In this document: positions 3,617 through 63,261 of the stretch, piece after piece
Layout of the letters: each line of letters starts with the position of its first letter
Position numbering within the stretch: position 1 is the stretch's first letter
Origin: Burkholderiales bacterium
GTDB taxonomy: Bacteria > Pseudomonadota > Gammaproteobacteria > Burkholderiales > Burkholderiaceae_E
DNA length: 64,000 bases
Direction: 5' to 3'
Assembly (NCBI GenBank): GCA_005798775.1
Contig: SYIM01000036.1
Span: 16,378-80,377 of the forward strand
The notes under the pieces: generated by a model
Told to the model about the DNA's origin: nothing
Seen by the model: the letters and a program-made list of their open reading frames with translations, nothing else
The model's database searches: none
Program-made: the position numbers and the translations under genes

Positions 3617-3847
3617 TCTGCCCCACGGGGCGACCGTCGCGAACACGCCGCCCCACCCTGCTGCCCCACCCCGCTACCCAGTCAACCGGCGCCCTGCTTC
3701 AGGCGCCTCGTGAATCTCGGCCTGGACGCTGGACGTCTCACGGCGAATCCACTACCCTCGGTCCGCCTGAGTGGGTTTGCGCGCAAACAACCCGCTGACC
3801 GAAAACAAGCGCCCGGCGCGCACGAACCACACCCGAGGAGGAGTCCC

Positions 3848-5279: not shown

Positions 5280-5295
5280 TTCCGCGAGGCTGTGG

Positions 5296-47022: not shown

Positions 47023-47997
47023 ATGAATCGTTCCTTTATCCGCCTCGCCGCCGTACCACTCGCCGCGCTCGCATTAGCCGGACCCTGCGCGGCTCAGAGT
47101 GAGGCCTATCCGAACCGCCCCGTGCGGCTGATTGTGCCCTTCGCACCCGGCGGCCCCACCGACACCGTCGCACGGGTCATGGGTGAACAGCTTCAGCGCC
47201 AATGGAAGCAGCCGGTGGTGATCGATTACAAACCTGGGGCAGGCACCGTGGTGGGCACCCAGCTGGTGGCCCGTGCGCCCGCCGATGGCTATACGCTTGG
47301 CATGGCAATCAGCGCCCTCATGATCAATCCGGCTCTGCGAAGCGATCTGCCTTACGACACCGCGCGCGAAGTGGCAGCGGTCTGTCTCATCGGGCAGGCG
47401 CATTTCGGACTGTTCGCCCATCCGTCAACACCTTTTTCAAACGTTGCCGAGCTCATCGCCTATGCCCGGAGCCGCCCGGATGCGCTCAGCTACGCCACCC
47501 CGGGAACGGGTACGGGCACGCATCTGGCAGGCGAAATGCTCAGTCATCTGGCGGGCATCAAGATGCTTCATGTACCCTACAAGGGAAGTGCTCCGGCGCA
47601 GATGGACGTCGCAGGCGGCCGCGTACCGCTCCTCTTTGATGTGCTGTTCTCAGCCATGCCCATGGTGCGTGATGGTCGTCTGAAAGTGCTGGCACTCGCG
47701 AGTCCGCAACGTGCGCGCTCAGCGCCAGAGATCGCCCTTATCGCTGAATCCCTACCAGGTTTTTCAGCGATGAGCCTGATCGGAATCATTGGCCCGGCTG
47801 GTATGCCCACCGCGCTTCTTGATCGCATCAGTGCCGATCTGGGTGAGGCGGTTCGCGCACCCGCTGTGACCGAACGAATGAACCAGCTGGGCATGGAGCC
47901 AGTGGGTTCAACGCATGCCGAGTATTCGCGCATCGTGCGCGAGGAAATCGGCAAATGGACACAGGTGGTCAAGACCGCTCAGATCAAGCTTGATTAA
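47023..47997 (+). CDS. Bug/TctC family periplasmic receptor (orphan)
   Basis: In-frame ATG 47023. Signal peptide ..CAAQSEA, then YPNRPVRLIVPFAPGGPTDTVARVMG. Confidence 0.85.
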   Translation: MNRSFIRLAAVPLAALALAGPCAAQSEAYPNRPVRLIVPFAPGGPTDTVARVMGEQLQRQWKQPVVIDYKPGAGTVVGTQLVARAPADGYTLGMAISALMINPALRSDLPYDTAREVAAVCLIGQAHFGLFAHPSTPFSNVAELIAYARSRPDALSYATPGTGTGTHLAGEMLSHLAGIKMLHVPYKGSAPAQMDVAGGRVPLLFDVLFSAMPMVRDGRLKVLALASPQRARSAPEIALIAESLPGFSAMSLIGIIGPAGMPTALLDRISADLGEAVRAPAVTERMNQLGMEPVGSTHAEYSRIVREEIGKWTQVVKTAQIKLD

Positions 47998-48007
47998 GGA
48001 CGCTTCA

Positions 48008-48946
48008 GTGCTCACGCTTTCCCTGAAATCGCTCACCCCGTTTGCCGCGGAAGTTCACGGCTTCGATCTGCGCGCGCCGCTGGGGCCAGATGGCGTGGCC
48101 GCGATCGAGTCTGCAATGGACCAGCATGCGGTGCTGGTGTTTCGCGATCAGCAGCTGGACCAGGATCAGCAGATTGCGCTTGCGCGTGCGCTGGGCCCGC
48201 TGGATCTCGGCCTGCGCCGCGTACGCATGGTGCAAACCCGGGCGCATCGTTTTCGTCACGAGGAACTCGCCGATATCTCCAATGTCACCGCCGAGGGCGA
48301 GGTGGCACCGCGCGACCACGCCAAGATCGTGAGTAACCTCGCCAACCAGCTGTGGCACAGCGACAGCTCGTTCCAGAAACCACGGGCGAAGTACTCGATG
48401 CTGTATTCAGTGGTAACCCCGCAGACCGGCGGCGACACCGAGTTCGCCGATCTCCGTATGGCCTGGGATGCACTCCCCGATTGGCGCAAGCGCCAGGTCG
48501 AGCCGCTCGCTGCGGTTCACTACGCCCTGCATTCGCGATTCATGCTGGGCGACACCCACTACACCCCGGAACAGCGCGATGCGATCAAGCCAGCGGTCTG
48601 GCCGCTGGTTCAAACCGATCCGCGTTCGGGACGAAAAATCCTCTTCGTCGGTATCCACGCCTGCGAGATTCCAGGCATGTCCTTACCCGAAGCGCGACTG
48701 CTGTTACTCGATCTGCTCGAACATGCCACGCAGCGCGAGTTCATTTATCGGCATCAGTGGCGGGTCGGTGACCTCGTGATGTGGGACAACACGGCCACGC
48801 TCCATCGGGGTCGTTACTTCGATATCTCGGAACGCCGCGAACTGCGCCGCGCCACCACGGAAGAGGTTGGCCTGTCGCCCGAGGCCGAGTCGCTCGCGGC
48901 GCGCGGTGCCGATCAGATTGCTCACTATCGCTATCAGACCGCCTGA
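48008..48946 (+). CDS. TauD/TfdA family Fe(II)/2-oxoglutarate-dependent dioxygenase
   Basis: WHSDSSF (HxD iron ligands), GGDTEFAD and a distal His/Arg region (HRGRYF). GTG 48008 preceded by AAGGA. Confidence 0.85.
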   Translation: MLTLSLKSLTPFAAEVHGFDLRAPLGPDGVAAIESAMDQHAVLVFRDQQLDQDQQIALARALGPLDLGLRRVRMVQTRAHRFRHEELADISNVTAEGEVAPRDHAKIVSNLANQLWHSDSSFQKPRAKYSMLYSVVTPQTGGDTEFADLRMAWDALPDWRKRQVEPLAAVHYALHSRFMLGDTHYTPEQRDAIKPAVWPLVQTDPRSGRKILFVGIHACEIPGMSLPEARLLLLDLLEHATQREFIYRHQWRVGDLVMWDNTATLHRGRYFDISERRELRRATTEEVGLSPEAESLAARGADQIAHYRYQTA

Positions 48947-48987: not shown

Positions 48988-49683
48988 ATGCACCCCTCCG
49001 CCCTTCCTGCCGACATCGCCGAGCGGCTGCGCGTGCGACGGGGCCGTCAGCACATCTACGAACAACTCGATTGCCGCAAGAGCGCGCTGGTGGTGATCGA
49101 CATGCAGAATGCGTTTCTTCGGGAGGGTGCTCCGTCCGAAACGCCGGCGGCGCGCCAGATCGTGCCCCAGATCAATCGGCTGGCGCGCACCGTGCGCGCC
49201 GGTGGCGGGCTGGTGGCCTTCACGCTTGGCACCTTTGCCCGCAGCGGCCCCGATGCCTGGCCCCACTTCTTTGAGCACATGGTGAACCCAGCGCATGCCG
49301 AGGCCATACTGGCCGCACTCAGCCCGGGCTCTCCTGACCATGCGCTATGGCCAGGGCTGGAGGTGGAATCAGAGGATCTTCAGCTCGCAAAGAAACGCTA
49401 CAGCGCTTTTTTCCCGGCAGCATGCGAACTTCCCCGACATCTTCGCGAGCGCGGCATCGACACCGTGGTGATCGCTGGCACGCTCACCAACGTGTGCTGC
49501 GAGGCCTCGGCGCGCGATGCCATGATGGCCGACTATAAGGTGGTGATGGCAAGCGATGCCAACGCCGCCCGATCTGATGCCGAGCATTTGGGCGCAATCG
49601 TGAGCCTTGCCCAGTTTTTTGCTGACGTCCGGAGTACCGACGACATCATCTCCATGCTCTCAGGGCCACGCCAATCAGCCTGA
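48988..49683 (+). CDS. Isochorismatase-family cysteine hydrolase
   Basis: ALVVIDMQNAF, KKRYSAF and VVIAGTLTNVCCEASARDA (catalytic D-K-C pattern). Confidence 0.85.
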   Translation: MHPSALPADIAERLRVRRGRQHIYEQLDCRKSALVVIDMQNAFLREGAPSETPAARQIVPQINRLARTVRAGGGLVAFTLGTFARSGPDAWPHFFEHMVNPAHAEAILAALSPGSPDHALWPGLEVESEDLQLAKKRYSAFFPAACELPRHLRERGIDTVVIAGTLTNVCCEASARDAMMADYKVVMASDANAARSDAEHLGAIVSLAQFFADVRSTDDIISMLSGPRQSA

Positions 49684-49695
49684 TACAGAGGGCGC

Positions 49696-51405
49696 TCAGG
49701 TGCAGATCACATCAATCAGCGCCTGCCGTCGATGCACGCGTACCTGCTCGATCGCCTCGCTGAGCGCATCCTGTAACGCGTTCCAGGTCTGAACCCGGGC
49801 GCCCCAGCCGCCGCAGGCCTCCGCCACCTGGTCAAACCGTGGCATGGGACGCAGGTCCGAGAGGGCCATGCCTTCTCGTACCGCCTGCCCCTCAGGGTAC
49901 ATCGCACGGGTGGCCCGCTCGACGGCACCATAGCCGCCGTTATTGAGAACCAGCGTCAGTACGGGAATACCGTGCATGGCTGCGCTGTGATGGCAGGCGA
50001 GCGGATTGGCAAACGAGTAGCTGCCATCGCCGAGGGCGGCAATGACCAACGCATCGGGACGAGCAAGCCGGGCACCGAGCGCTGCGGGCAGCCCCCATCC
50101 AAGCCCCCCTACCGGACTGGATCCGAAATAACTGCCGGGCGTCTCAAGCCTCAGCGCCGCCGGCACCAACGAATATTCGTTGATCACAATCGCATCGGGG
50201 TGTTGAGCCAGGGCGAGACCCAGCGCATAGCTGGCGGCAGCCATGGTGAGCGGCGAGTCGGGACGCTGCCCCGCTTCGATCGCCTGCGTGAGCGCACGGC
50301 TGCGAGCCGATGCTTTCACGGCGACCCAGGCCTGGCGCGATGGCGGAGGCGGTCCATGGCTTGCAAGCGCCTGCTCGAGCGCACGCAAACACGCGAGCGG
50401 CGCGACCGACGCGCTGAGATCGCTGCGAAAACTCCGGACCGGATAACGGGAGAACAAGGGGTCGGCGCCGACATGCAGCACCGGTACGCCCTCGCGAGGC
50501 TCGGCTTGGCCCGGGATCCAGGGCACATCACTATCCAGAACCAGGATCGCATCGGCCTCCGTCAGCCAGGGCTGAACTTCATAGCCGCCGTGCATCGGGT
50601 GTGAGTTAGGAAGGTTCAGATAGCGAGGGCGAAACTCAACGACCGGCCAGGCGTGCTTGAGCGCGATTCTCGCCAGCACCTCAACGGCTTCCGGGTCCCG
50701 TCCGGCTCGTGAGGTGATGATGAGCGGACGCTCAGCTGCCGCGAGTACGCGAGCCATCTCGGCCATCGTTTCAGAATCTGGTTGTCCGGCCATGACGGGC
50801 GCCTGCGCGCTCGCCACGGGCGCAGCACAGGTCTCGTGCATGGCCTCTCTTGGCAGGCTCAGGTAGACCGGCCCCTGCGGCTGCGCATGGGAAATAGCCA
50901 TCGCCCGATCGATCACCGATTCGAGCTGCTGCGCAGCACGCAACTCGTAGTCCCACTTGCAGTGCTCTCGCACGATCCCCGCCTGATCGAACATCTCCTG
51001 AGCCCAGTGAATATTGAGTGACCGGCTGGCAACCGATCCCTTCTCGAACCAGGGCGTACGACCAGCCGCGAGCAGCATTGGAATGTTCTCGCGCGACGCG
51101 TTGATGAGCCCACACAATGCGTTGGCGGTCCCAACGTTGACGTGTACCATCACAGCTTGCGCGCGCCCGGTCACCATCGTTACGCCGTAGGCCATACCGA
51201 CGGCGATATTCTCGTGGGGAACCAGCAGCGTTCGCGGTACTGACCTCGCGTCGGCCCGAACCTTTGCTAAGGCCTCCACAATCGACGGAAAATCGGTTCC
51301 GGAATTCACAAAGAAAAATGCGACGCCACGGCTCGCGAGCAGCTTGAGCAGCACCTCGCCCGCGGGCAGGGCATTGCGAGAAGAGGAAGGCTGGTGGACA
51401 TTCAT
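49696..51405 (-). CDS. Thiamine-diphosphate-dependent enzyme (acetolactate-synthase-like fold)
   Basis: N-terminal Pyr domain FFFVNSGTDFPSIVEAL. The C-terminal PP domain has GGLGWGLPAALGA..ALGDGSYSF.NP. Specificity unknown. Confidence 0.85.
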   Translation of the reverse strand: MNVHQPSSSRNALPAGEVLLKLLASRGVAFFFVNSGTDFPSIVEALAKVRADARSVPRTLLVPHENIAVGMAYGVTMVTGRAQAVMVHVNVGTANALCGLINASRENIPMLLAAGRTPWFEKGSVASRSLNIHWAQEMFDQAGIVREHCKWDYELRAAQQLESVIDRAMAISHAQPQGPVYLSLPREAMHETCAAPVASAQAPVMAGQPDSETMAEMARVLAAAERPLIITSRAGRDPEAVEVLARIALKHAWPVVEFRPRYLNLPNSHPMHGGYEVQPWLTEADAILVLDSDVPWIPGQAEPREGVPVLHVGADPLFSRYPVRSFRSDLSASVAPLACLRALEQALASHGPPPPSRQAWVAVKASARSRALTQAIEAGQRPDSPLTMAAASYALGLALAQHPDAIVINEYSLVPAALRLETPGSYFGSSPVGGLGWGLPAALGARLARPDALVIAALGDGSYSFANPLACHHSAAMHGIPVLTLVLNNGGYGAVERATRAMYPEGQAVREGMALSDLRPMPRFDQVAEACGGWGARVQTWNALQDALSEAIEQVRVHRRQALIDVICT

Positions 51406-51523: not shown

Positions 51524-52708
51524 GTGAAACGTTCACACCAACTTGTTTCATCCGCATTGCTGGCTCTTGCCGCGATGGGCTGCCCGGCGCTCAAAGCGCA
51601 GGCACAGGCTGCATCGCCCGCACGCCTTCAGATCGGCGTGCTCACCTCGCTCACCGGGTCGATGGCAGCGCCCGGCGTTTTCCAGATGAATGGCTTCCGG
51701 CTGGCGGTCGAAGAGATCAACGGCTCGGGTGGTCTCGCGATCGCCGGCCGCACCTATACGCTGGAGTTGAAGGTTTACGATACCCGCGCCAACCCCAGCG
51801 AGGGGGCCTCCGCCATGCAACGGCTGGCAACGGTGGACAAGGTCCCGGTGGTACTGGGTGAGTTGTCGTCCGGCGTTGCTGCCGCGATCGCCCCGATCGC
51901 GCAAGACTATTCGCTGCCCCTGGTGCTCACCGTGCCCACCGGGCCAAATCTCACCGAGCAGAACAATCCGTTTCTGTTTCGCGTCAACGCACACAACAAC
52001 CAGCTGAATCAGGCGCTCGCCGATTTCGTGAGCAAGCAGGGCTGGGCGCCCATCTCCTTTATCGCCTGGAATAACGATGCTGGCCGCGGTGGCGTCACCG
52101 GTATGCGCCAACTGCTCCCCGCCGCCACGAAAGACGGCTATGTGGGCTACTTCAATGTGGGCGAACTCGATTTCTCAAGCCATGTGTCGAATGTGCGAAA
52201 CAGCCGCGCCCAGGCTGTCATGCTGTTCATGGACGAGGAGCCAGGTAGCCTCGCCATCCGGCAACTGCGCGACGCCGGACTCAAGACCCAGATCGTAGGC
52301 ACGCTCGCCATGGGATCAGACCGCTTCCTGAAGCGACTCGATGCCCAGCGGCTCGATGGTATGGTGCAATACAACGCGTTTCCACCAAATGCCGACACGC
52401 CACGAATTCGCAATTTCAGCCAGCGCTACAAGGCGAAATACGGCGAGGAGGCACACGGCTTTGCAGCGCAGTCCTACGACGGACTGATGGTTGCGGTCGC
52501 CGCCATGCGTGCGGCGGGCACTGTGAATCATGGCAAGGCCATCCGCGATGCGCTCGCCAAAATCAAGCACGAGGGTGTGATCGGCAACATTCAGTTCGAC
52601 GCCAAAGGGCAGGCGCATCCCAGCGTCTATGTCACGCAGTGGTGCGCCGACGGTACCCGTCGCATTCTTTATCCCGAAAGCGCGAAGGCTGGCTGCGGCG
52701 CGGGCTGA
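51524..52708 (+). CDS. LIV-type ABC transporter periplasmic substrate-binding protein
   Basis: GTG 51524, 6 nt after GAGGAGG. Signal peptide ..LKAQAQA, then LQIGVLTSLTGSMAAPG. Confidence 0.85.
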   Translation: MKRSHQLVSSALLALAAMGCPALKAQAQAASPARLQIGVLTSLTGSMAAPGVFQMNGFRLAVEEINGSGGLAIAGRTYTLELKVYDTRANPSEGASAMQRLATVDKVPVVLGELSSGVAAAIAPIAQDYSLPLVLTVPTGPNLTEQNNPFLFRVNAHNNQLNQALADFVSKQGWAPISFIAWNNDAGRGGVTGMRQLLPAATKDGYVGYFNVGELDFSSHVSNVRNSRAQAVMLFMDEEPGSLAIRQLRDAGLKTQIVGTLAMGSDRFLKRLDAQRLDGMVQYNAFPPNADTPRIRNFSQRYKAKYGEEAHGFAAQSYDGLMVAVAAMRAAGTVNHGKAIRDALAKIKHEGVIGNIQFDAKGQAHPSVYVTQWCADGTRRILYPESAKAGCGAG

Positions 52709-52726
52709 TCGCAGTCAGTCGGTCAC

Positions 52727-53605
52727 ATGATGGGCGAGGCGCTTCTCGAGCAGGTAATCAACGGCCTGATGATGGGCTCGCTCTACGTGCTGGTTGCACT
52801 CGGCATGGTGCTGATCTATGGCGTGATGCATGTCGTCAATTTTGCGCACGGCGTTCTCTTCACCCTCGGTGGCTATGTCGGCGTCTTCTGTTATCAGCAT
52901 CTGGCGCCCAGCTATGCACTGGCGCTCCTGCTCTCAGTTGCCTCGCTCGCCATCGTGGGGCTCGCCATCGAGCGGCTGGTGTTTCACCCGCTCGACGGCA
53001 ATCTGCGCAATCAGGTCATCGCGTCCCTCGGGCTCATTCTGTTTTTAGAAAATCTCATCATCGCAATATGGGGCGCCACAGCGCTTCAGTGGAAGGTGGC
53101 AAGCACTGACCATCTGGTGCGTATCGGATCGCTTCAGTTCAGTCTCCACCACCTTGGCATCATTGCGATCACGCTGGTACTGGTCGCGGTCCTGGGCCTC
53201 TTTCTCAAATACTCGCGATTCGGCACTGCAATTCGTGCCACCAGCCAGAGCCGCGAGGCTGCTCTTGTGGTGGGTATTCCGGTGCGGCGCGTCCAGTGGA
53301 GCAGCTTTGCGATCGGCTGCATGCTGGCCGGACTGGGTGGCGGACTGGTCGGCCCCCTGTTCCTGGTGTTCCCGCAAATGGGCGATGTTCCGCTCGTCAA
53401 GGGCCTGGCTGGTATTCTGCTCGGCGGTATGGGCAGTGTTCCTGGCGCGGTGTTGGGGGGCATGCTGCTCGGCGTCACCGAGTCGGTATCCACGCTATTC
53501 CTGCCCACCGACTACCGCGACTCCATCGCATTCATGGTGATGGTTCTTATCCTCCTCTTCCGACCTCAGGGCCTTTTCGGCCAGCGAATCCGGGGGGAAG
53601 ACTGA
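52727..53605 (+). CDS. Branched-chain-amino-acid-type ABC transporter permease (LivH-like)
   Basis: QVINGLMMGSLYVLVALGMVLIYG and NFAHG motifs. Confidence 0.9.
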   Translation: MMGEALLEQVINGLMMGSLYVLVALGMVLIYGVMHVVNFAHGVLFTLGGYVGVFCYQHLAPSYALALLLSVASLAIVGLAIERLVFHPLDGNLRNQVIASLGLILFLENLIIAIWGATALQWKVASTDHLVRIGSLQFSLHHLGIIAITLVLVAVLGLFLKYSRFGTAIRATSQSREAALVVGIPVRRVQWSSFAIGCMLAGLGGGLVGPLFLVFPQMGDVPLVKGLAGILLGGMGSVPGAVLGGMLLGVTESVSTLFLPTDYRDSIAFMVMVLILLFRPQGLFGQRIRGED

Positions 53606-54585
53606 TGAAGTGGGCAGCTTTTGCCCCGCGCGTGCTTGGCGTCCTGGTATTGATCACGCTCCTCAGCGCCCCGGCGTGGGCGGCGGGTCATCCCTATGTG
53701 CTTCACATGCTGGTGCTGTCCTGCATCATTTCGATCGCGGCAGTGGGCCTGAATCTGATGCTGGGCTATGGCGGACTGGTGAGTCTTGGCCACATGGGAT
53801 TCGCCGGACTTGGCGCCTATGTAGCGGCGGTGCTGATGGTGGACGCACGCTGGAGTTTCTGGGGCGCGCTGGGCGCGGCAACCATTGCCTCGGCGATCGT
53901 CGGTGCGCTGATCGGTCTGATTTGCTTCCGATTCCGGGGCCACTTCTTCATGATCGTCACGCTTGCTTTTGGTCTCCTCCTTCATGCGGTCATGAACAAC
54001 TGGGATGACGTGACACGGGGCGCGGCCGGTCTGCCGGGTGTCCCCCGCCCAGCGGCGTGGCGCTGGGGCGACACAGTGATCAGCTTTGGGCAGTTACCGA
54101 ACTTCTACTATCTCGCGCTGGCCATCACGCTCGCCGTCTTTGTCGTGCAGTATCTTGTGGTGCGCTCTGATCTGGGCCGCGTGCTCGGATCGATCCGTCA
54201 GGACGAAAGACTCGCTCGTGCCCGGGGGGTCAATGTCATCGTGTTCAAAACTGTGGTGTTCGCCCTGGGGTCGGCGCTTGCCGGCATAAGCGGCGTCCTG
54301 CAGGTCTCGTTCCTGAGGGTCGCCGCACCGGCGAGTTTCACCATGCTGGAGAGCATCAACACGGTCCTGGTGGTGATTGTTGGCGGCGCGGGCTTTCTCG
54401 TCGGGCCAGCGGTCGGAGCATTGCTCTATGTCACGCTACCCGAGGCGCTGCGTCTGGCCAATGAGTGGCGACTGGTGATCTTCGGGGGTCTGCTGGTCAT
54501 CATGATGCTATTCGCGCCGCAGGGCCTCACCGGGCTAGCACACACACTGTGGCAACGCGTCACCAGTGGGCGCTTCCCGCCATGA
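53605..54585 (+). CDS. Branched-chain-amino-acid-type ABC transporter permease (LivM-like)
   Basis: In-frame ATG 53605 (TGATG overlap). GYGGLVSLGHMGFAGLGAY motif. Confidence 0.85.
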   Translation: MKWAAFAPRVLGVLVLITLLSAPAWAAGHPYVLHMLVLSCIISIAAVGLNLMLGYGGLVSLGHMGFAGLGAYVAAVLMVDARWSFWGALGAATIASAIVGALIGLICFRFRGHFFMIVTLAFGLLLHAVMNNWDDVTRGAAGLPGVPRPAAWRWGDTVISFGQLPNFYYLALAITLAVFVVQYLVVRSDLGRVLGSIRQDERLARARGVNVIVFKTVVFALGSALAGISGVLQVSFLRVAAPASFTMLESINTVLVVIVGGAGFLVGPAVGALLYVTLPEALRLANEWRLVIFGGLLVIMMLFAPQGLTGLAHTLWQRVTSGRFPP

Positions 54586-55331
54586 GCGTCCTCGAAGTGA
54601 AGGGTCTTCGCAAAGCCTACGGTGGTATTCATGCACTCGATGATGCGGGCTTTGTGATCGATTCGCCTGGTCTCTACGGTCTGATCGGTCCCAACGGCGC
54701 GGGCAAGACCACCCTCTTTGATGTGGTCGCGGGGACAGTGCAGGCCGATGCGGGCAGCGTCTGCTTTGAGGGCGAGAACATCACAGGCTGGCCGTCCCAT
54801 CGACGAGCCCTGGGCGGAATTGCGCGCAGTTTTCAGGAGTGCCGGGTCCTACCCGAGGAGACCTGTCTGGATAACGTGCTCTTTGCCGCCCAGCCAAAGG
54901 GCTTGGGCACATGCGTGCGGCAACTCGTCTCGCGCAGCAACGCCCATCGTCGTCGTGTCACAGACGAGGCCATGCGCCTGCTGAGCCTGGTACGGCTGCA
55001 GGGACATGCCCACACACCCGCCGCACAGCTCTCGTTCGGTCAGAAGCGTCTGCTCGAGCTGGTCTCGGTTTTCATGAGTGCCCCGCAATTGCTACTTCTG
55101 GATGAACCCGCCTCGGGCGTCAACCCTGCGCTGCTCGAGGTGCTGTCCGACTTCATCCGCACCATGTATGCGGAGCAGGCACGGGCCTTTCTGATTGTTG
55201 AGCACAACATGGAATTCATCATGGCGCTCGCCTCCGACATCATCGTGATGCATCAGGGCAAGGTACTGGAGCGCGGCAGTCCCCCGATCGTGCAGGCGAG
55301 CCCGCGCGTGCTGGAGGCCTACCTGGGATGA
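54582..55331 (+). CDS. ABC transporter ATP-binding protein (LivG-like)
   Basis: Walker A GPNGAGKTT, signature SFGQKRLLELV, Walker B LLLLDEP. ATGA overlap. Confidence 0.9.
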   Translation: MSVLEVKGLRKAYGGIHALDDAGFVIDSPGLYGLIGPNGAGKTTLFDVVAGTVQADAGSVCFEGENITGWPSHRRALGGIARSFQECRVLPEETCLDNVLFAAQPKGLGTCVRQLVSRSNAHRRRVTDEAMRLLSLVRLQGHAHTPAAQLSFGQKRLLELVSVFMSAPQLLLLDEPASGVNPALLEVLSDFIRTMYAEQARAFLIVEHNMEFIMALASDIIVMHQGKVLERGSPPIVQASPRVLEAYLG

Positions 55332-56044
55332 GTGCGACGCTGCGCCTGGAGAATTTCGGCGCGGGGTATGGCGCGCGACTGATCATCGAGGATGTTTCTC
55401 TCGAGGTGAATGCCGGCGAGATTGTCACCGTCATCGGTCACAACGGCGCGGGCAAGTCGACGCTGCTTCGTGGCCTGTTCAATCTGGTCCCGATTCGCCA
55501 GGGACGTGTTCTACTGAAGGGCCAGCCGGTTGAGCATCTCGCCTCCGATCGACTACTCACGGCCGGCATCGCATTCATCCCGCAACACCGAAGCATCTTT
55601 CCCCGGCTCACGATCGCGGAAAACCTCCGGATGGGCGCCTACACCGTACGCGACCCTGGCATTCTGGCCGAGCGCATGGCAGGCGTACTCAGGCTTTTCC
55701 CCATTCTTCAGAATCGTCTGGGTCAGCTCGCCGGACTGATGTCAGGCGGTGAGCAGCGAATGTTGGAAATCGCGCGTACCTTGCTGCAGGATCCCTCCCT
55801 CATCATGCTCGATGAACCGTCGATCGGCCTTGCACCGCGAATGGTCGACACGGTCTTTGACACGGTGAGGCTGCTTCGCGATCAGGGTAAGGCTGTACTG
55901 ATGGTCGAACAGAATGTTCGAAAAGCACTGTCGGCGTCAGACCGCGGCGCGGTGATGGAACTGGGAAGCCTGCGGCTAATCGATCAGGCTCGGCATCTGA
56001 TTGATGACGAGCGCGTGGCGCGGCTGTACATGGGCCGACGCTGA
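55328..56044 (+). CDS. ABC transporter ATP-binding protein (LivF-like)
   Basis: Walker A GHNGAGKST, signature SGGEQRMLEIAR, Walker B LIMLDEP. Confidence 0.9.
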   Translation: MSATLRLENFGAGYGARLIIEDVSLEVNAGEIVTVIGHNGAGKSTLLRGLFNLVPIRQGRVLLKGQPVEHLASDRLLTAGIAFIPQHRSIFPRLTIAENLRMGAYTVRDPGILAERMAGVLRLFPILQNRLGQLAGLMSGGEQRMLEIARTLLQDPSLIMLDEPSIGLAPRMVDTVFDTVRLLRDQGKAVLMVEQNVRKALSASDRGAVMELGSLRLIDQARHLIDDERVARLYMGRR

Positions 56045-56055
56045 TCGTCCGCCCG

Positions 56056-57408
56056 CTACGCACTTGTCTTGCCACGCAGGTCGGTGAACCGCTGCGTTTT
56101 CCAGCGTGCGTCCGACTGTAGCGCCCCAACTGCGACCCGCTCGACGTCGGGGGTCACCCCACAGGCGTGCTTGACCAGCCGGACCAGATCGCCAGACAAC
56201 GTGGCGTCGTCTGCGCGCTCTACTCTAACCCTGAGGCGGTCTCCAGAAAGCGGCACATCAGCGACATGCTCAACCGTGATCTGAAAGGGGCAGCCCCCCA
56301 GGTGCCGTTCGAGTTCGGCAATGACTGCGTCGGGATTCACCAACATGCCCTTGACCTTGACCAGAGCGTCTGCCCGACGAGGCGTTCGGGTCAGCCGATC
56401 GGTGACCGCACCGCAGCACGGACAGGGCTCGCGGGTGAGCACCGAGATATCGCCCAACGCATAACGCAGTAGCACCGTGCCACGCCGCTCCAGATGGGTC
56501 AGAAGCACGTTTCCCGGCTCCCCTTCAGCTAACGCTCTGCCGGTCTCGGGGTGCACGATATCGACCTGGAACTGCGCCGGTAACGGATTGTGGAGGCCTG
56601 CCCCCGGATGGCACTCGATCATGCCACCCTGCATTTCAGTGGCTCCATAGGAGATGCTCACCTGCGCGTGGTGGGCCCCCGCTGAGGCGAGCGCCGCCAT
56701 CATGTGTTCCCGCGCGGTCTCGGATAATGCCTCACCCGTGACAAATACTTTACGGACACTTGGAAGCCGGGTGCCAAGTTCGGTTGCGCGCGCGAGCACG
56801 CGCTGAACGTAGCTCGGCACCCCCCACAAAATGGTGGGAGACTGCGCCCTCAGAAGCGCGATCACCTCATCGAGCGAGCGGCCCAGATCGAAATGAGGCG
56901 AGGGGTTACCGGGCATCGCGCTCACCACCGGGATTTGCAGGCTTGCTGCGGCGTGCAGCACACGAATCCAGGCACCGTGTGGTACGGTGGTGAGTGGAAA
57001 CAGATTCGCAATCAGGTCAGTGGGCTGAACACCGCGCAGCAGCAGCATGTTCCGCTGCAGTTTGAGGATATTGAAAAAATCATAGCTGGTGGAGACAAAC
57101 GGCGTGGGTACCCCAGAGGTGGAACCCGTGGTGTACATCACATCCCAAACCGTTCGCATCTCGGGTTCGAGCCCGTCGCTTTCGAGTACGAAGCGCTGGG
57201 ATTCGGCCATGTACTGCGCCTTGGTGGTGACAGGGATACGTTCGAGATCGTCAATCGACTGAAAGTGATCGCGTCTCAGTCTCTCGCGCTGAAACAGGTC
57301 GCGGTAATAGGGATGACGCTCAAACACCAGATCAAGCGTACGAGCGAGTGCTGCCTCGCGCGCAACCCGCAGCGCCGTCAAATCGGTGTGGCCCTCGTAT
57401 CGCGACAT
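56056..57408 (-). CDS. Phenylacetate-CoA-ligase-like adenylate-forming enzyme (PaaK / coenzyme F390 synthetase family)
   Basis: 450 aa. YTTGSTSGVPTPF (AMP-binding P-loop-like motif), YGATE, and a C-terminal KVKG motif. Confidence 0.7.
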   Translation of the reverse strand: MSRYEGHTDLTALRVAREAALARTLDLVFERHPYYRDLFQRERLRRDHFQSIDDLERIPVTTKAQYMAESQRFVLESDGLEPEMRTVWDVMYTTGSTSGVPTPFVSTSYDFFNILKLQRNMLLLRGVQPTDLIANLFPLTTVPHGAWIRVLHAAASLQIPVVSAMPGNPSPHFDLGRSLDEVIALLRAQSPTILWGVPSYVQRVLARATELGTRLPSVRKVFVTGEALSETAREHMMAALASAGAHHAQVSISYGATEMQGGMIECHPGAGLHNPLPAQFQVDIVHPETGRALAEGEPGNVLLTHLERRGTVLLRYALGDISVLTREPCPCCGAVTDRLTRTPRRADALVKVKGMLVNPDAVIAELERHLGGCPFQITVEHVADVPLSGDRLRVRVERADDATLSGDLVRLVKHACGVTPDVERVAVGALQSDARWKTQRFTDLRGKTSA

Positions 57409-57416
57409 GGCCGTAC

Positions 57417-59729
57417 TCAGTCTGCCAATCCCGCCGCCACCCGGATCGCAGCCTGTGCATTCGCTTCGTTCGGCTCGAGAAGGCTTCCGGGCGCAAGTTC
57501 ACCCGGCTCGATCAGAACATGGTCGATCACTCCACCGTACGGAAATGCGTCGCGATGCGCATAGCGTTCACTCACCGACAACCGACGAGACAGCCCGACA
57601 CTCATGCCGGCAGTGGGGATACGAAGCATGGTGGGCGACAGATCAATGCCCGCCACAGACGGTTCACCGTTCAACCCAATACTCGCGTGACCCTTGCGCG
57701 CGCCGGCGGCTACGTACTCGAAGCGATAGTGCTGGCGCCCCTCAGACAGAGGGATAGGCGGCAAAGTGGTAGGTTGATGCCACCACTGATACACGCAATG
57801 AACGCGGCCCGCTTCCACAAACAGTGCAAGGCCACAAAAGCGGTCGCCGAGCGCAAAGATCACGCCCTCCTGCCCGTGAGACCACTCGAAGAAAGCCTCC
57901 AGCCGGTAGCTGCGATCGCAGACCAGTGGCGAGACCACCAGCGATGGAACTGAGGGGCCTACCGGATAGAACCGGCGTGGCATCAGCATGCGCGACACCT
58001 CATGGGGCGGTACATGGTGGTTACGACGCTCATCGCGTGTATCAATCGGGTAGACATGATTCGTACCCGCTTCGGCCTCAAATTCATCAATCAGCTGCCG
58101 CAGCCGCACCGGCTCGGTCGATGCAAGGTCGTTGATCTCAGCGGGATCATCCGCAAGGTTGAACAGCATCCAGTTATCCAGATCGATCGCCTTGTCCGGG
58201 GTCTGGAGCGACACGATCTTCCAGGAGCCCGAGATGTAGGCACGACTGCCCTGAAGTTCATAGTATTGGCGCGTTCGGGCAGCCGGCGCTCGCGCATTGC
58301 TCACAACGTGCGAGAAGCTCTTGCCATCAAACGGCAGGGTCGGGTGTTCATTGAAATGCTGCGGCATTTGCCCGCCAGCGTAGTCCATGACCGTCGGCAA
58401 AAGGTCGGTGACATGAACCCACTGCCTCCGGATGGAGCCCGGATCGACGATCTGCTGCGGCCAGTGCATCACGAGGGGCACGCGAATACCGCCTGCCATC
58501 GGCGTGCGCTTGAAATACCGGTAAGGCGTATTGCTGAGCTGCGTCCATCCGGTGGGATAGCAGACGTAGGTGTCTGCATCACCCACTCGATCTTCCTCAA
58601 GCAATCGCAGATTGAGCGCCATGTTTTCGGTTGCACCCATCCGCCGCCCGATCAGATTCATGACGCCTGAAGGCCCCGCTACCGCATTGGCGCCGTTGTC
58701 GGAGGTGAGCAGCACCAGCGTGTTGTCAAAGAGGTCCACCCGTTGCAGACAGCTCATGAGCCGGCCCACGTTCTGGTCAGCGTTATTAAGGAGCGCCGCG
58801 TACACCTCCATGTAGCGCGCAAAGAGCGCGCGCTCGTCTTCACTGAGCGATGCCCAGTCTGGCACGCCTGGGTTACGCGGCGCAAAACCTGCGTTCGGTT
58901 CGATGAGACCGGCAGCACGTTGGCGCTCATAGCGCCGGCGACGCAGCACATCCCAACCCTCATTGAAGCGGCCACGGAAGCGCTGCAAGTCCTCGGGCTT
59001 CGCGTGCAGCGGGCCGTGTGGCGTCTGAAAAGCCAGGTACAGAAAGAAAGGCTTGTCGGGTGAACTGGTGGCGTGCTGAGTGAGCCATTCCACGGCACGC
59101 TGGGTATAGTCATCGGGCGCAAAATAACCATCGGGATAGCGCACCACATGAGCCGGATGGTTACCCTCCATCATGTTGTCAGGTTGGAAATAGCTGGTTT
59201 CGGCGCCCATGAAACCGTAGAACTGATCAAACCCTCGCTGGATCGGCCAGGAGCGGGTATCGCCTCCTGGCAAATTGTTGCGGTCGTAGGTGTTGTGCCA
59301 CTTGCCCGCCGCGAGCGTGGAATAGCCCCCCGCGCGCAATAGCTCCGCCATGGTGGGAGCGGCGAGCGATATCTCACCGCCATAACCCGGATACCCCGGG
59401 TTGTTCTGAGACAGCCAGCCACAGCCCACGCCGTGCGGGTTACGCCCGGTGAGCAGGGCCGCGCGCGCGGGCGTGCACATGGGCACCGTGGTGTAGCCGG
59501 TAAAGAGCAGCCCACCCGCCGCGAGTGCATCGATATTGGGCGTATCGATATCGCCACCAAAGCACCCAAGATCCGAAAACCCCATGTCATCTAACAGGAT
59601 CACGATGACATTTGGGCTGCCAGAGCGCGCACGCACCGGAGGCAGCCAGTAGGGGCGCGATTGCGCGAGCGTCTTTGCAACGGTTACGCCGGGTGAACGG
59701 TCTGACCGTGAGGAGGCTTGGGACATCAT
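57417..59729 (-). CDS. Cys-type arylsulfatase with extra C-terminal domain, apparently cytoplasmic
   Basis: VIVILLDDMGFSDLGCFGG and CTPARAALLTGR (formylglycine CxPxR motif). There is no hydrophobic leader after ATG 59729. The ~230-aa C-terminal extension is beta-rich (lectin/LamG-like guess). Confidence 0.85.
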   Translation of the reverse strand: MMSQASSRSDRSPGVTVAKTLAQSRPYWLPPVRARSGSPNVIVILLDDMGFSDLGCFGGDIDTPNIDALAAGGLLFTGYTTVPMCTPARAALLTGRNPHGVGCGWLSQNNPGYPGYGGEISLAAPTMAELLRAGGYSTLAAGKWHNTYDRNNLPGGDTRSWPIQRGFDQFYGFMGAETSYFQPDNMMEGNHPAHVVRYPDGYFAPDDYTQRAVEWLTQHATSSPDKPFFLYLAFQTPHGPLHAKPEDLQRFRGRFNEGWDVLRRRRYERQRAAGLIEPNAGFAPRNPGVPDWASLSEDERALFARYMEVYAALLNNADQNVGRLMSCLQRVDLFDNTLVLLTSDNGANAVAGPSGVMNLIGRRMGATENMALNLRLLEEDRVGDADTYVCYPTGWTQLSNTPYRYFKRTPMAGGIRVPLVMHWPQQIVDPGSIRRQWVHVTDLLPTVMDYAGGQMPQHFNEHPTLPFDGKSFSHVVSNARAPAARTRQYYELQGSRAYISGSWKIVSLQTPDKAIDLDNWMLFNLADDPAEINDLASTEPVRLRQLIDEFEAEAGTNHVYPIDTRDERRNHHVPPHEVSRMLMPRRFYPVGPSVPSLVVSPLVCDRSYRLEAFFEWSHGQEGVIFALGDRFCGLALFVEAGRVHCVYQWWHQPTTLPPIPLSEGRQHYRFEYVAAGARKGHASIGLNGEPSVAGIDLSPTMLRIPTAGMSVGLSRRLSVSERYAHRDAFPYGGVIDHVLIEPGELAPGSLLEPNEANAQAAIRVAAGLAD

Positions 59730-59755
59730 GGCTGACCTGTAAAAACAGACCCTGA

Positions 59756-60730
59756 TTAATCGGCTTTGATATTGGCCCGCTTCACGACCGCGGTCCACTT
59801 GGCCAGGTCGTCACGCAGGTAGGCTGAAAACTGCTCAAGCGTTGCGACCGGCGCAGCCGACATTCCACTGTTCGTAAGTGCAGTTCGCAGGCCCTCGCTC
59901 AAGAGCGCGCGGTCAATCTCGGCACGGAGGCGACGCATGACGGCTGGCGAAGTGCCCTTTGGCGCCAGGATGCCCAACCACTGATCAGCTTCGAAGTCCT
60001 TGACCCCGGATTCGGCCATCGTGGGCAGATCCGGAAGCGCCGAAAATCGCTTCGCACCCGTGACGGCGATTGCGCGTACCGCACCCGACCGGATCTGCGG
60101 CAACGCCACCGCTGCGTTGGCGAACAGAATGTCGACGTGCCCCGCGATCAGATCGGTGATTGCCTGCGGTGCGCCCTTATAGGGGATGTGCGCGATATCC
60201 AGACCCATCGTGGACTTGTAGAGCTCAGTGGCGAGGTGGGCAGGCGAACCGGTGCCCGCGGAGGCGTAGGACAACTTGCCGGGGCGCGCGCGGGCCAGCG
60301 CGGTGAGCTCCTGCACCGTCTTGGCGGCCAAGCCGACATTGACCACCACGATGGAGGGCGCATACGCCACAACCGCCACTGGTGCGAAATCATTGACCCC
60401 ATCGAACGGGAGCTTCTGCCCCAGCGCTGCGTTCATGTTGAGGGCTGAAGTGGTGAGGACGAGCGTATAGCCGTCGGGGGCGGCCTTTGCCGCCAGATCT
60501 GCGCCAATCACACCGCCCGCACCCACCTTGTTATCGATCACGACGGGTTGCCCCATACTCGCCTGCAACTCCTTCGCAACAGTCCGCGCAGCGATATCCA
60601 CCAACCCGCCTGCGGGCCAGGGAACAATCATGCGAATCGGCCTTGCCGGATAGTCCTGTGCGACGGCCGATAGCGACGCGAAACTGGCGATCAGAGCGAT
60701 CGCAACGCTGCGTAAACCCGGTATGTACAT
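59756..60730 (-). CDS. Bug/TctC family periplasmic receptor
   Basis: Signal peptide ..LSAVAQD, then YPARPIRMIVPWPAGGLVDIAARTVA. Confidence 0.85.
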   Translation of the reverse strand: MYIPGLRSVAIALIASFASLSAVAQDYPARPIRMIVPWPAGGLVDIAARTVAKELQASMGQPVVIDNKVGAGGVIGADLAAKAAPDGYTLVLTTSALNMNAALGQKLPFDGVNDFAPVAVVAYAPSIVVVNVGLAAKTVQELTALARARPGKLSYASAGTGSPAHLATELYKSTMGLDIAHIPYKGAPQAITDLIAGHVDILFANAAVALPQIRSGAVRAIAVTGAKRFSALPDLPTMAESGVKDFEADQWLGILAPKGTSPAVMRRLRAEIDRALLSEGLRTALTNSGMSAAPVATLEQFSAYLRDDLAKWTAVVKRANIKAD

Positions 60731-60748
60731 GAGTTGTCCTCCTTTAAA

Positions 60749-62878
60749 TTAATGGTCAGCGATTTTCTGTTCGTTTTCACTCACCACCGGTATCGCTACC
60801 AGGCGTGCGCGGGCGCGCTCCACCGGCTCCGCCATAACATAGGCGGCGAGCCCCGCCTCACGGTCTACCGGTACCACCGTTTCGAGCGTGACGCCCCCTG
60901 CGGGCTGCAGGTGTGGCGGAAACATGGCAAGTTTCTGTCGCTCACCCAGGCGGATGCGTTCGAGATCGAGATCTCGCTCATTGATGCCCGCAACCGGGCG
61001 TTGGGCCACGCCATTTACCATTTCGAGATCGAACCACCAGCGCTTCACGGGATTTCGCATACCGTTTCCCGCAGCATCATCAGCAGCTGCGATTGCGGGC
61101 GCGAGTTCGGCATGCTCGATCGACAACCACATGAGGCGCTCGGCCTCGACCGTGTCTTCGCGATTCCAGGGGCAGGTCTTCATGCAGCGTCCACAGGCCG
61201 ACCCCTTCATATTGGTCACACGATATTTGGTGCATTTCTCAACATCAGCCTTCCAGATCTCGTAGCCGTTAAACATCACCTTCGGGCCAAACGGAATCGC
61301 GTTGCACGGGCACTCGCGCGCGCACTTTCTGCATGACTCGCAAAAGGACTGTAGACCGAAATCGATCGGTCGGTCGACTGTCATCGGCAGATCGGTGGTG
61401 AACACCACGCTTTTCGAGCGGGGTCCGATGAAGGGATTGAGGATGGTGTCACCGATCCGGCTTACTTCGCCCAGGCCCGCCATGAGAATCGCCGGGTTGT
61501 GAATGACCTCCGAGTGCGCATTCGAGTGGGAGCGCGCCGAGTAGCCCATGCGCCGGCAGTGTGCGGCCATGATTCCCGCGATCTCGGCGCCTCGCATATA
61601 GGCGCGCATCGATTGCGAGGCAGAGATCCAGTCATCGCCCGAGGCCCCCTCCATGGTCTCAAAGCCCTGATCGATCAGCATCACCACCGCATACCGGTGA
61701 TAGGCGGAAATCGGCTTGCCCTCGACTTCATCGTGCGAGTAGTACATCCAGGGCTCGGCGCGACAGATGCCCACAAAGTCGGCCCCCAGGAAATAGCCCA
61801 GCGCCTTGATTGCCTGGGCATTGGCGAGGGGATCAGACCGATCGCCGCCAAGACCCGTGGGCACCAGAGGCTCGCGTGTGCCCTGCAGTGGCACCATGCC
61901 TGCGATGAGGGGTTGCATGCCAAGCGCATAGGGATGCTTCATCGGAAAGCGCATCCGTTCACGTTTGGCCTTCTCGCCCAGATCACCGGCCTGCGCACGC
62001 TTGAAAAAATCAGCGCGCTTGGGCACTCGTACGATCGCCTCCTCTTCGACCAGCGTCGTGGGCGTATCCCGCCGGGCAATACGCTCCATTGGATACCGGC
62101 CAAGGTGCAGCGGCCGCCGGTCGAGTTCGGCATCCCACCATGCGGGGCGGGTCCCGTTCTGGCCCATCACGACGGCTGGATCGGCAGGCGCGAGTGAGCC
62201 CGCGGGGTCGAGCGCAAGATCTGCCTCAAACGCGTAGTCAGAGGTCACCGCCGCCAGCCGGAAACCACGATTGAGATACGGCGCCACAAGCATGCCTGCA
62301 TCGGCACGGATAACACCTGCGCGCTGAGCGAGCCACTCCAGATGAACCGATGTCGCCCCCGCCGCATGTCCGGTCGCGGAGAAGCCCATCTGCCTGAGAT
62401 AGCCGGACAGCACTGCAGCGAGTTCAGTCGCACGCAGATCGGTGCGCGCCGCGTTACTGCCTGCGATCCAGGCCTCACCTGACTCGCCTGGGTGCGGCTC
62501 ACGTCCAAACTCCACCAGTAACACCAGCGCATGCGTGTGCCCCGAAACAGATTCTGCCAGCCAGTCAGTCGCCTCCAGACAACAGCCCCCAACGATGCTG
62601 GCGTCCAAAAAATAGGCCGAGGCCTTCAGATTGGCCGACCGCAGCGCAGGATCGTCTGGAATCGGCGCCCGCGCAGCCGCCACGGGTCCGTTCAGATGGC
62701 GTCTAAATAGCGCGAAGTAGTCATCGAGCACATGGGTCATTGCGGCCTCGCCAGGCGTCCGGCGGTCCGACGGCAGCGCTGCACTGCTGTCCGCCTCACA
62801 AGACGGCACACGCGCTAACGCCTCAAGCGCGAGCGGTCCCAGATGGAAAGGACGGTCACGATGGCTGTAGATACGCAC
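60749..62878 (-). CDS. Reductive dehalogenase family protein, cytoplasmic catabolic type (NpRdhA/BhbA-like)
   Basis: 709 aa with no Tat/Sec leader. The C-terminal part has the RdhA-type twin Fe-S motifs FCESCRKCARECP and C..x12..CGRCMKTCPWN, preceded by a region that reads like a B12-binding core. The ~330-aa N-terminal extension agrees with my recollection of NpRdhA architecture. GTG start 62878; alternative ATG 62740. Confidence 0.6.
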   Translation of the reverse strand: MRIYSHRDRPFHLGPLALEALARVPSCEADSSAALPSDRRTPGEAAMTHVLDDYFALFRRHLNGPVAAARAPIPDDPALRSANLKASAYFLDASIVGGCCLEATDWLAESVSGHTHALVLLVEFGREPHPGESGEAWIAGSNAARTDLRATELAAVLSGYLRQMGFSATGHAAGATSVHLEWLAQRAGVIRADAGMLVAPYLNRGFRLAAVTSDYAFEADLALDPAGSLAPADPAVVMGQNGTRPAWWDAELDRRPLHLGRYPMERIARRDTPTTLVEEEAIVRVPKRADFFKRAQAGDLGEKAKRERMRFPMKHPYALGMQPLIAGMVPLQGTREPLVPTGLGGDRSDPLANAQAIKALGYFLGADFVGICRAEPWMYYSHDEVEGKPISAYHRYAVVMLIDQGFETMEGASGDDWISASQSMRAYMRGAEIAGIMAAHCRRMGYSARSHSNAHSEVIHNPAILMAGLGEVSRIGDTILNPFIGPRSKSVVFTTDLPMTVDRPIDFGLQSFCESCRKCARECPCNAIPFGPKVMFNGYEIWKADVEKCTKYRVTNMKGSACGRCMKTCPWNREDTVEAERLMWLSIEHAELAPAIAAADDAAGNGMRNPVKRWWFDLEMVNGVAQRPVAGINERDLDLERIRLGERQKLAMFPPHLQPAGGVTLETVVPVDREAGLAAYVMAEPVERARARLVAIPVVSENEQKIADH

Positions 62879-63261
62879 GAGGGCTGGATCCGCGATCAGG
62901 GTGGATTCGAGAGCATACGCCGCGCGAGCGGGTCACCGGGCTGCTCGCGCGAGCACGGCGCGATAGGGCTGCCGCGCAAACGATTCGGTGCCTTTGAGGC
63001 GATATTTCCGCGTATCGGCCTTGAGACGGACAGGTTGAACAGCCCCCTCGTCCGGCTTGAACTCATGTTGTGCGCCGTGAGCGCCGAACCCAGGGACGAA
63101 GGCGCAACTTAAAATCTTGATTTATGCTGAACAAGCGCACCAGCGCGCGCACTGCCCCGAGCCGACAATGCAACCCGTATACGGATAGATCAGCCGCCAA
63201 CATGCTTTGCGGCCAGGCTTGCGGCGTGGGCGCGCGTTCGGGGGCAAAGGGAGAGGTCCAG

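Follow-up and report, generated by a model that had tools for sequence, protein, structure and literature searches.

An NpRdhA-type reductive dehalogenase gene ahead of a Bug receptor-sulfatase cassette in a mosaic Burkholderiales locus, with a possible functional link between dehalogenase and sulfatase

Oxygen-tolerant catabolic reductive dehalogenases (RdhAs) have been studied with herbicide-derived 3,5-dihalo-4-hydroxybenzoates, and their natural substrates are largely unknown. Two described systems stand closest to the locus analyzed here, NpRdhA from Nitratireductor pacificus pht-3B (PDB 4RAS, 6ZXU/6ZXX) and BhbA, whose gene lies with that of the binding protein BhbB in the bromoxynil pathway of plasmid pBHB from Comamonas sp. 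7D-2. The NpRdhA gene is reported to adjoin those of a ferredoxin reductase and two ferredoxins (PMC10463259). In this work we analyzed a 64,000-nt stretch of DNA from a Burkholderiales bacterium (contig SYIM01000036.1 of assembly GCA_005798775.1, positions 16,378 to 80,377; hereafter, the window), in which a gene encoding an NpRdhA-type RdhA precedes genes for a Bug receptor, an arylsulfatase and a PaaK-like ligase. A literature search found no gene cluster joining a reductive dehalogenase to a sulfatase, only separate mentions of the two in a Desulfatiglans single-cell genome paper, in agreement with the initial annotation of this locus, whose author knew of no such system.

The four genes lie on the minus strand of the window in the order RdhA (62878-60749, 709 aa from a GTG start), Bug receptor (60730-59756, 324 aa), sulfatase (59729-57417, 770 aa counted from ATG) and ligase (57408-56056, 450 aa), with intervening spacers of 18, 26 and 8 nt; the coordinates and spacers of the initial annotation were all confirmed. 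Judged from sequence comparison with relatives, the locus is a mosaic of three parts, namely an NpRdhA-type RdhA gene, a Bug-sulfatase cassette, and the first gene of an unrelated module that encodes the ligase, an ATP-binding cassette (ABC) importer, a thiamine pyrophosphate (TPP)-requiring enzyme and an isochorismatase-family hydrolase.

The first gene product has the features of a full-length catabolic (non-respiratory) B12/[4Fe-4S] reductive dehalogenase of the NpRdhA type, as had been proposed for it together with a profile search as a check. The TIGR02486 model is passed by a narrow margin (161.4 bits against a cutoff of 160.35), and the alignment with NpRdhA (4RAS; E=0, 1072 bits over residues 1-694) runs end to end with 69% identity over 703 aligned residues. 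The N-terminus MRIYSHRDRPFHLG carries no twin-arginine translocation (TAT) signal and pairs with NpRdhA residue 1, for which reason we favored the GTG start, giving 709 aa, over the 663-aa call in the public contig. The two proteins belong to the same length class (709 and 704 aa) and share domain order and iron-sulfur cysteines, and both are without a TAT leader and a fused C-terminal reductase domain. The cysteines of the two [4Fe-4S] motifs, C513/C516/C519/C523 in a CxxCxxCxxxC pattern plus C549, C562, C565 and C569, are invariant in 27 homologues, and the PF12838 model is also passed (28.8 bits, cutoff 27). No rdhB adjoins the RdhA gene, the next gene being that for Bug; no model-based search for rdhB was made.

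Ten pocket residues of NpRdhA have been given roles in the paper on its substrate complexes, in which S422, K488 and R552 bind the phenolic hydroxyl of the substrate and Y426 is the proton donor (PMC7565698). Nine of the ten are the same in the window RdhA (F290, F310, P311, A419, S422, M423, Y426, K488 and R552, in NpRdhA numbering), the tenth being K307 in NpRdhA and R in the window protein; in the numbering of the latter, the hydroxyl-binding and catalytic residues are S423, Y427, K489 and R553. In an alignment of 87 RdhAs, 85 of them taken from fetched loci in addition to NpRdhA and the window protein, the polar residues S-M-Y-K-R never vary, and the hydrophobic part of the pocket falls into two classes, with the window RdhA in that of NpRdhA. 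The pocket thus looks like one made for ortho-halogenated phenolic acids and, because the residues holding the hydroxyl (S422, K488, R552) and the proton donor Y426 are all intact, the window RdhA is predicted to need a free ortho-hydroxyl; the premise of the initial annotation that such enzymes position their substrate by a free phenolic hydroxyl therefore held. The ratio of non-synonymous to synonymous substitutions (dN/dS) of RdhA is 0.07-0.09 across lineages, at dS of 0.3-1.2.

We regard this RdhA as a new member of the NpRdhA subgroup, and a pairing of RdhA with Bug is already known from bhbA/bhbB, where the two likewise lie in an aromatic-catabolic cluster of a member of the Burkholderiales and the binding protein is TTT (tripartite tricarboxylate transporter)/Bug-type. 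The differences from both systems are in the neighboring genes and in protein architecture. The redox-partner genes reported next to the NpRdhA gene are not in the window, which has the Bug-sulfatase cassette instead; a pyridine-nucleotide oxidoreductase was found near an NpRdhA-type gene at another locus, L006. BhbA is 41% identical to the window RdhA and has 1,071 aa with a C-terminal reductase domain; its Bug gene lies upstream of bhbA and encodes a protein 37% identical to the window Bug, and the bhb neighbors encode protocatechuate 4,5-dioxygenase, no sulfatase gene being present. In a plasmid collection we found only BhbA-type homologues (41-42%), and the features annotated in the two contexts examined included no sulfatase.

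The 324-aa protein covers the whole PF03401 profile (E=1.5e-75) and starts with a hydrophobic leader, read as a signal peptide ending …SLSAVA-QD, as expected of a periplasmic solute receptor of the Bug/TctC family. The 770-aa protein, annotated before as a leaderless Cys-type arylsulfatase, kept this assignment: it matches PF00884 (E=1e-57), has no hydrophobic leader, and carries a CTPAR motif (C85-T-P-A-R89) that pairs with residues 51, the formylglycine (FGly), to R55 of the Pseudomonas aeruginosa arylsulfatase PAS/AtsA (1HDH). Residues D47, D48, K143, H145, H238, D344, N345 and K407 do not vary among 17 family members and match the metal-binding and catalytic residues D13, D14, K113, H115, H211, D317, N318 and K375 of PAS (for D13/D14 and C51/R55 the correspondence was read manually off the alignment, for the remaining PAS positions it was assigned by motif). 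These features classify it as a predicted cytoplasmic Cys-type (formylglycine) S1 arylsulfatase of the PAS/AtsA kind, with a catalytic part at aa ~37-555. The open reading frame mechanically extends back to a GTG at 59798; since homologues are 767-770 aa long, the ATG at 59729 was taken as the start.

Of the characterized arylsulfatases, PAS is the closest one with a solved structure (phmmer E=1.6e-85). The likeness extends to the fold (TM-score 0.76 on the target), and PAS 1HDH is the best Foldseek match (E=1e-33) of the AlphaFold model of the sulfatase, whose mean predicted local distance difference test score (pLDDT) is 68.8. Sequence identity is ~33%, and unlike PAS the window protein has an extra conserved C-terminal region of ~220 aa. 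In the model this region forms a beta-sandwich at aa ~585-745 (pLDDT 86-95; window 57417-58000 corresponds to aa ~577-770) that is kept in all ~770-aa members. Pfam gave no match for the C-terminal 227 aa, and the whole-chain Foldseek search, dominated by the catalytic domain, gave no name for the beta-sandwich. The sulfatase also differs from the Pseudomonas ats locus, where the importer is of ABC type, in pairing with a Bug/TTT receptor.

A sulfatase-centered metagenome scan yielded 79 loci. The identity of each upstream Bug to the window Bug follows that of its sulfatase to the window sulfatase: Bugs of 88-95% identity precede sulfatases of 90%, and the corresponding values are 82% for 85%, 71-72% for 74%, 67% for 72%, and 56-66% for 64-70%. 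Since these identities fall in step, against only 28-44% between the window Bug and other, paralogous Bugs, including those adjacent to RdhA genes, Bug and sulfatase are a co-diverging pair, and the window Bug is, by this comparison, the cognate partner of the sulfatase. The initial annotation had likened the RdhA-Bug pairing to that of bhb; a role of this Bug as RdhA's own receptor was rejected, because it is orthologous to the sulfatase-linked Bugs (57-95% identity) and not to the RdhA-linked receptors described below.

The Bug-sulfatase cassette is modular. It was found in dozens of freshwater Burkholderiales contigs, mostly behind a DUF3604 gene and without RdhA. Within the 79 loci, RdhA precedes it in six, with sulfatases 87-90% identical to that of the window, and at least 14 have a DUF3604/CehA-McbA-like protein of 747 aa in that position; other cassettes are preceded by LacI or by nothing recognizable. 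At L105 (sulfatase 85% identical) a 723-aa Abhydrolase_10 protein stands in front of the cassette and the flanks are not syntenic. The DUF3604-Bug-sulfatase clusters (L092, L113, L115 and others) keep the order and tight spacing of the window genes, with Bugs at 56-66% and 770-aa sulfatases at 64-73% identity; they differ in having a DUF3604/CehA-McbA-like metallohydrolase in the RdhA slot and in encoding a formylglycine-generating enzyme (FGE) and a second sulfatase. As measured in the window and four clade members, the Bug-sulfatase spacer is 26-33 nt and the RdhA-Bug spacer 18 to 81 nt.

This type of cluster is widely conserved in fresh water; one, L092:417-9702, reads DUF3604 (747 aa, weakly CehA/McbA-metallohydrolase-like), Bug, 770-aa sulfatase, TauD, 544-aa sulfatase and FGE, and L113 and L115 are alike. 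For DUF3604 we found no literature.

The dehalogenase side was examined through a scan in which a single genome stood for each GTDB species; it gave at least 595 NpRdhA-type loci, 80 of which were examined. By tblastn, orthologous Bug and sulfatase genes were present only in the three closest of these 80 loci, L001 (RdhA 95% identical), L002 and L076 (88%); RdhAs at 81-82% (P0011, P0012, P0009) and at 57-72% identity have other neighbors. RdhA ahead of the cassette is thus confined to one narrow, genus-level clade of freshwater Burkholderiales (RdhA at least 86% identical). Within it, the trio of RdhA, Bug and sulfatase genes is intact in every member seen (L001, L002, L076, L085, L101-L104, L106, L147 and the window's own contigs) and under purifying selection (dN/dS 0.06-0.15, dS up to 1.2-1.5), although both flanks were remodeled. 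Overall, the neighborhoods of RdhA are heterogeneous, with a Bug within 4 kb in 21/85 loci, a LysR gene in 10/85, and otherwise small clusters.

The nearest outgroup RdhAs (L099/L100 81%, L058 72%, L003 70%, L004 67% identical) are followed by a receptor gene, here termed BugR, and by a gene annotated as a nitroreductase; a LysR gene lies just 5' of RdhA where gene calls exist (L099/L100, L186). The nitroreductase proteins are 84-85% identical to the copy at L186 (L186:12100-12762), which is an iodotyrosine deiodinase (IYD) homologue (E=3e-76 to 5KO7, 4e-48 to mammalian IYD). These LysR-RdhA-Bug-IYD-like operons (L003, L004, L058, L099; RdhA 67-81%) share with the window the pocket class and a Bug directly after RdhA, and differ in the Bug orthogroup, in the presence of LysR, and in having an IYD homologue in place of the sulfatase. 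Among themselves the BugR proteins show 72-81% identity, against 36-41% to the window Bug. By tblastn, neither BugR nor an IYD-like gene is present in the window, L001, L002 or L076, and no LysR gene lies beside the window RdhA. Given that BugR forms a group distinct from the window Bug, and that BugR and the IYD-like gene are missing here, the receptor slot was swapped for receptor plus sulfatase. On this gene content, the clade carries a receptor-plus-sulfatase cassette at the place where its relatives hold a receptor and a second dehalogenase.

As a separate observation, B12-dependent and flavin-dependent dehalogenases for ortho-halophenols appear to share one operon in the LysR-RdhA-Bug-IYD-like loci (L003, L004, L058, L099/L100, L186).

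We also searched the locus for transcription signals. The 18-nt RdhA-Bug spacer contains AAAGGAGG, and in a consensus scan of 55900-63400 all three spacers were free of sigma-70-like and terminator-like sites. The same scan gave just two terminator-like matches, both intragenic and fewer than in shuffled sequence, and is in this respect uninformative. The spacers of 8-26 nt, with no consensus promoter or terminator between the genes, make co-transcription of RdhA, Bug and sulfatase, possibly together with the ligase, plausible from layout alone. Upstream of RdhA, an alignment of the corresponding regions of the window, L001, L002, L076 and L101 points to a leader and putative promoter region at 62879..62945 (minus strand). 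The sole upstream block common to all five is GGCGTATGCTC (62921-62911, 34-44 nt 5' of the RdhA start), and the consensus sigma-70 scan found no match in 62879..62945.

Sulfatases of other kinds also lie beside NpRdhA-type genes. In two Rubrivivax metagenome-assembled genomes (L047, 4031-11916; L051, 9887-18229) a single strand encodes RdhA, Bug, a VanA-like Rieske O-demethylase, a short-chain dehydrogenase/reductase (SDR), a second Bug and a ~520-aa sulfatase, so that the dehalogenase has two phenol-unmasking enzymes of different kinds beside it. At the Limnohabitans locus L054 a divergent Bug and 458-aa sulfatase pair is found near RdhA. At L186, whose RdhA is 76% identical to that of the window, a leaderless Pisa1-like type III alkyl/aryl-sulfatase of the metallo-beta-lactamase (MBL) fold (10098-12029, minus strand; E=7.5e-206 to 4AV7) lies on the opposite strand, where it starts 10 bp past the RdhA stop, and occupies the position of BugR in relatives. 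The type I sulfatases near RdhAs are 25-37% identical to each other and to that of the window. Counting the window clade, four independent lineages and two unrelated folds have a sulfatase within 5 kb of an NpRdhA-type gene. Every sulfatase match begins within 5 kb of RdhA, a zone for which 626 kb were searched, with none in 433 kb of the 5-10 kb zone and none in 152 kb of other control sequence (585 kb in total). This enrichment is at most suggestive.

The fourth gene behaves differently from the trio. Its product is an adenylate-forming enzyme of the ANL superfamily, an acyl-CoA ligase that is PaaK-like in the broad sense only: it scores 85.2 bits against TIGR02155 (cutoff 646.3) and 96.1 bits against NF041878 (cutoff 700), both PaaK models, and its best model is the DVU_1553 family (120.4 bits, cutoff 300). 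All four families named in the initial annotation were right, with the reservation that the ligase is only PaaK-like and far below the PaaK cutoffs. Its dN/dS of 0.13 indicates purifying selection. Convergent with the ligase gene is a LivK/H/M/G/F-type ABC importer (51524..56044, plus strand), an arrangement repeated in L088, L180 and L182; beyond it lie genes for a TPP-requiring enzyme of the PRK08327 family (49696..51405, minus strand; 651 bits, cutoff 456) and for an isochorismatase-family hydrolase (48988..49683, plus strand) that is part of the same module. A TPP protein 34% identical to that of the window is encoded downstream of bhbA on pBHB.

The 8,446-bp segment 48950..57395, comprising isochorismatase, TPP enzyme, ABC importer and ligase genes, is absent in L002 and L076, where blastn showed window position 57396 joined straight to 48949. 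In L001 position 57411 is joined to ~49662, and L001 and L101 miss only about 49663-57410 (blastn). Altogether, the ligase is missing in L001, L002, L076, L101, L102 and L103, while RdhA-Bug-sulfatase stays. L076 retains a scar, ATGCCGCGATACG, in which the ligase gene's first 13 nt survive after the sulfatase stop and the 8-nt spacer, fused to the 3' end of a convergent TauD gene. From this scar and the differing end points of the deletions, the module was ancestral in the clade and was deleted at least twice. A second Bug receptor and a TauD/TfdA-family dioxygenase (47023..48946, plus strand) converge directly on the sulfatase in L002 and L076.

Apart from the window's own contigs, only L085/L104, in one other lineage, have all four genes together; the L085 ligase is 76% identical. 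By tblastn there is no close ligase homologue near the 80 RdhA loci, the sole match being at 29% and on the opposite strand, in L012. The homologues at 61-64% identity (L088, L180, L182) lie in unrelated contexts, always beside a convergent Liv-type ABC importer and an isochorismatase, and in some loci, not all, also with the TPP enzyme and Amidohydro_2; none of these three contexts has an RdhA or sulfatase nearby. As the same ABC and isochorismatase partners recur without RdhA or sulfatase, the ligase is the edge gene of a conserved module of its own. On these results, together with the clean junctions that skip 48950-57395, we rejected a conserved four-gene unit; the single four-gene operon of the initial annotation, for which it had proposed a synteny check, and the ligase step placed in its pathway are not supported. 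A portable module of ligase, LivFGMHK ABC importer, (Amidohydro_2), (TPP) and isochorismatase genes can be seen in unrelated neighborhoods at window 48988-57408, L088, L180 and L182.

We consider that the sulfatase and RdhA may act in sequence on one masked halophenol, and give this reading a probability of roughly 0.45. In the most likely form of such a route RdhA, Bug and sulfatase would be transcribed together; Bug would capture an aryl sulfate ester that is anionic and probably carries a carboxylate, and pass it to a TctAB translocator encoded elsewhere; and the sulfatase would hydrolyze the ester in the cytoplasm to sulfate and free phenol. If this phenol were ortho-halogenated, RdhA could bind it by the unmasked hydroxyl and remove the halogen, with electron donors and cobalamin supplied from elsewhere in the genome. 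The benefit to the cell might be carbon, sulfur, or detoxification of the aglycone. The coupling is favored by the hydroxyl-unmasking logic, the slot swap, the persistence of the trio, and the recurrence next to RdhA of non-orthologous sulfatases and of an O-demethylase, another phenol unmasker.

Several observations weigh against this reading. The linkage is limited to one clade with syntenic flanks, and vertical inheritance explains much of its recurrence; most orthologous cassettes are without RdhA, and of the RdhA loci counted 77/84 have no sulfatase within reach. The four independent events give a binomial p≈0.07, and among them the L186 sulfatase resembles sec-alkylsulfatases most and is encoded on the opposite strand, and the L054 pair is divergent. 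The 87 aligned RdhAs show no pocket change peculiar to the sulfatase-linked clade. Genes for ferredoxin, ferredoxin/flavodoxin reductase and cobalamin were not found within the 64-kb window, and neither was FGE (tblastn with two FGEs), which sister cassettes encode alongside. Sister cassettes, moreover, often carry TauD, a second sulfatase and FGE, which is typical of general organosulfate use. Of the coupling proposed in the initial annotation, then, what stands is that the trio is kept in the clade and that three further independent adjacencies support the idea moderately, set against the majority of RdhAs without a sulfatase and of cassettes without RdhA.

The cassette could instead be a general organosulfate unit, for sulfur scavenging or aryl sulfates, that came by chance to lie 3' of RdhA, the two acting on unrelated substrates even if perhaps co-transcribed. 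This explanation we hold to be quite possible, at somewhat less than even odds. It accounts well for a cassette that is widespread without RdhA and stands behind DUF3604, Abhydrolase_10, LacI or no recognizable gene, for the TauD, second sulfatase and FGE of the sister clusters as well as the genes for TauD and an NMT1/SsuA-like binding protein near the trio in the window, for the great heterogeneity of RdhA neighborhoods (Bug 21/85, LysR 10/85) and the Bug-rich catabolic patchwork found here, and for an RdhA-Bug spacer that varies (18-81 nt) next to a steady Bug-sulfatase spacer (26-33 nt). It accounts less well for non-orthologous sulfatases of two folds within 5 kb of NpRdhA-type genes in four independent lineages, for a trio that stays intact at dS≥1 while adjoining modules are deleted, and for a cassette that takes exactly the usual receptor slot of RdhA.

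A dedicated operon of four steps, in which uptake by Bug, desulfation and dehalogenation would be followed by a ligase step that activates the dehalogenated aromatic acid with CoA, could draw on the ligase start 8 nt past the sulfatase stop in the window and L085, on the L076/L002 scar, by which the ligase adjacency is ancestral in the clade, and on the ligase dN/dS of 0.13. Its loss with its partners from L001, L002, L076 and L101-L103, where the trio persists, the company of Liv-type ABC and isochorismatase genes, without RdhA or sulfatase, that its 61-64% homologues keep, and scores of 85-96 bits against PaaK cutoffs of 646-700 make this improbable; as a conserved unit the four-gene pathway is largely refuted. 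More improbable still, in our view, is an RdhA left stranded when its LysR regulator, its cognate Bug and its IYD-like partner were lost, and without any present function connected with its neighbors: these three genes do flank the nearest relatives and are absent in the window, L001, L002 and L076, but a dN/dS of 0.07-0.09 and fully conserved catalytic residues speak against this reading.

The sulfatase-RdhA link may matter beyond this locus. Its recurrence, with an O-demethylase in one lineage, leads to the testable idea that the physiological inputs of these enzymes are conjugated halophenols, that is, sulfate esters and methyl ethers. Such conjugates could in principle stem from algae, fungi, animals, or the conjugation of pollutants. 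In its broadest form, which we consider speculative and rather unlikely, aerobic catabolic B12-dependent RdhAs would act in nature on masked halophenols, and their lineages would repeatedly have recruited unmasking enzymes (among them sulfatases from three type I subfamilies, an MBL-fold sulfatase of type III and a VanA-like O-demethylase) that give, inside the cell, the free ortho-hydroxyl on which catalysis depends; the window trio would then be dedicated to the uptake, desulfation and dehalogenation of sulfated halophenolic acids, and both these substrates as a class and the pathway would be hitherto undescribed. Were sulfatase and RdhA indeed coupled, this would add a step to freshwater halogen and organosulfur cycling and guide the choice of substrates for RdhAs of biotechnological interest. 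Were they not, the locus would still be an example of two separate units, a promiscuous Bug-sulfatase cassette and a ligase/ABC module, passing for a four-gene operon.

As for transport, the sole TTT membrane components in the window are encoded with a TctC-like gene in a set of TctC-like, putative TctB and TctA genes at 3710..6810 (plus strand; TctA PF01970, E=2e-121), ~50 kb from the trio; no TctA or TctB gene adjoins the Bug gene. Orphan Bugs are usual in the Bug/TctC family (PMC8556258). The set may be the translocator for the orphan Bugs, that of the trio included. The 64 kb hold nine Bug genes and one TctC-like gene with only one TctA, and given this abundance a Bug adjoining any enzyme gene here is weak evidence alone. 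Further from the trio, a 731-aa open reading frame (23980-26175, plus strand) directly follows a Bug gene and matches no Pfam family, with a weak spermidine-synthase-like match in its C-terminal part (NF037959, 55.7 bits). At 34029-38477 (plus strand) and 38543-41572 (minus strand), genes for hydantoinase/oxoprolinase subunits A and B lie beside the tripartite ATP-independent periplasmic (TRAP) transporter genes DctM and DctP and are unrelated to the trio; the B subunit bears an acetone-carboxylase-gamma-like tail.

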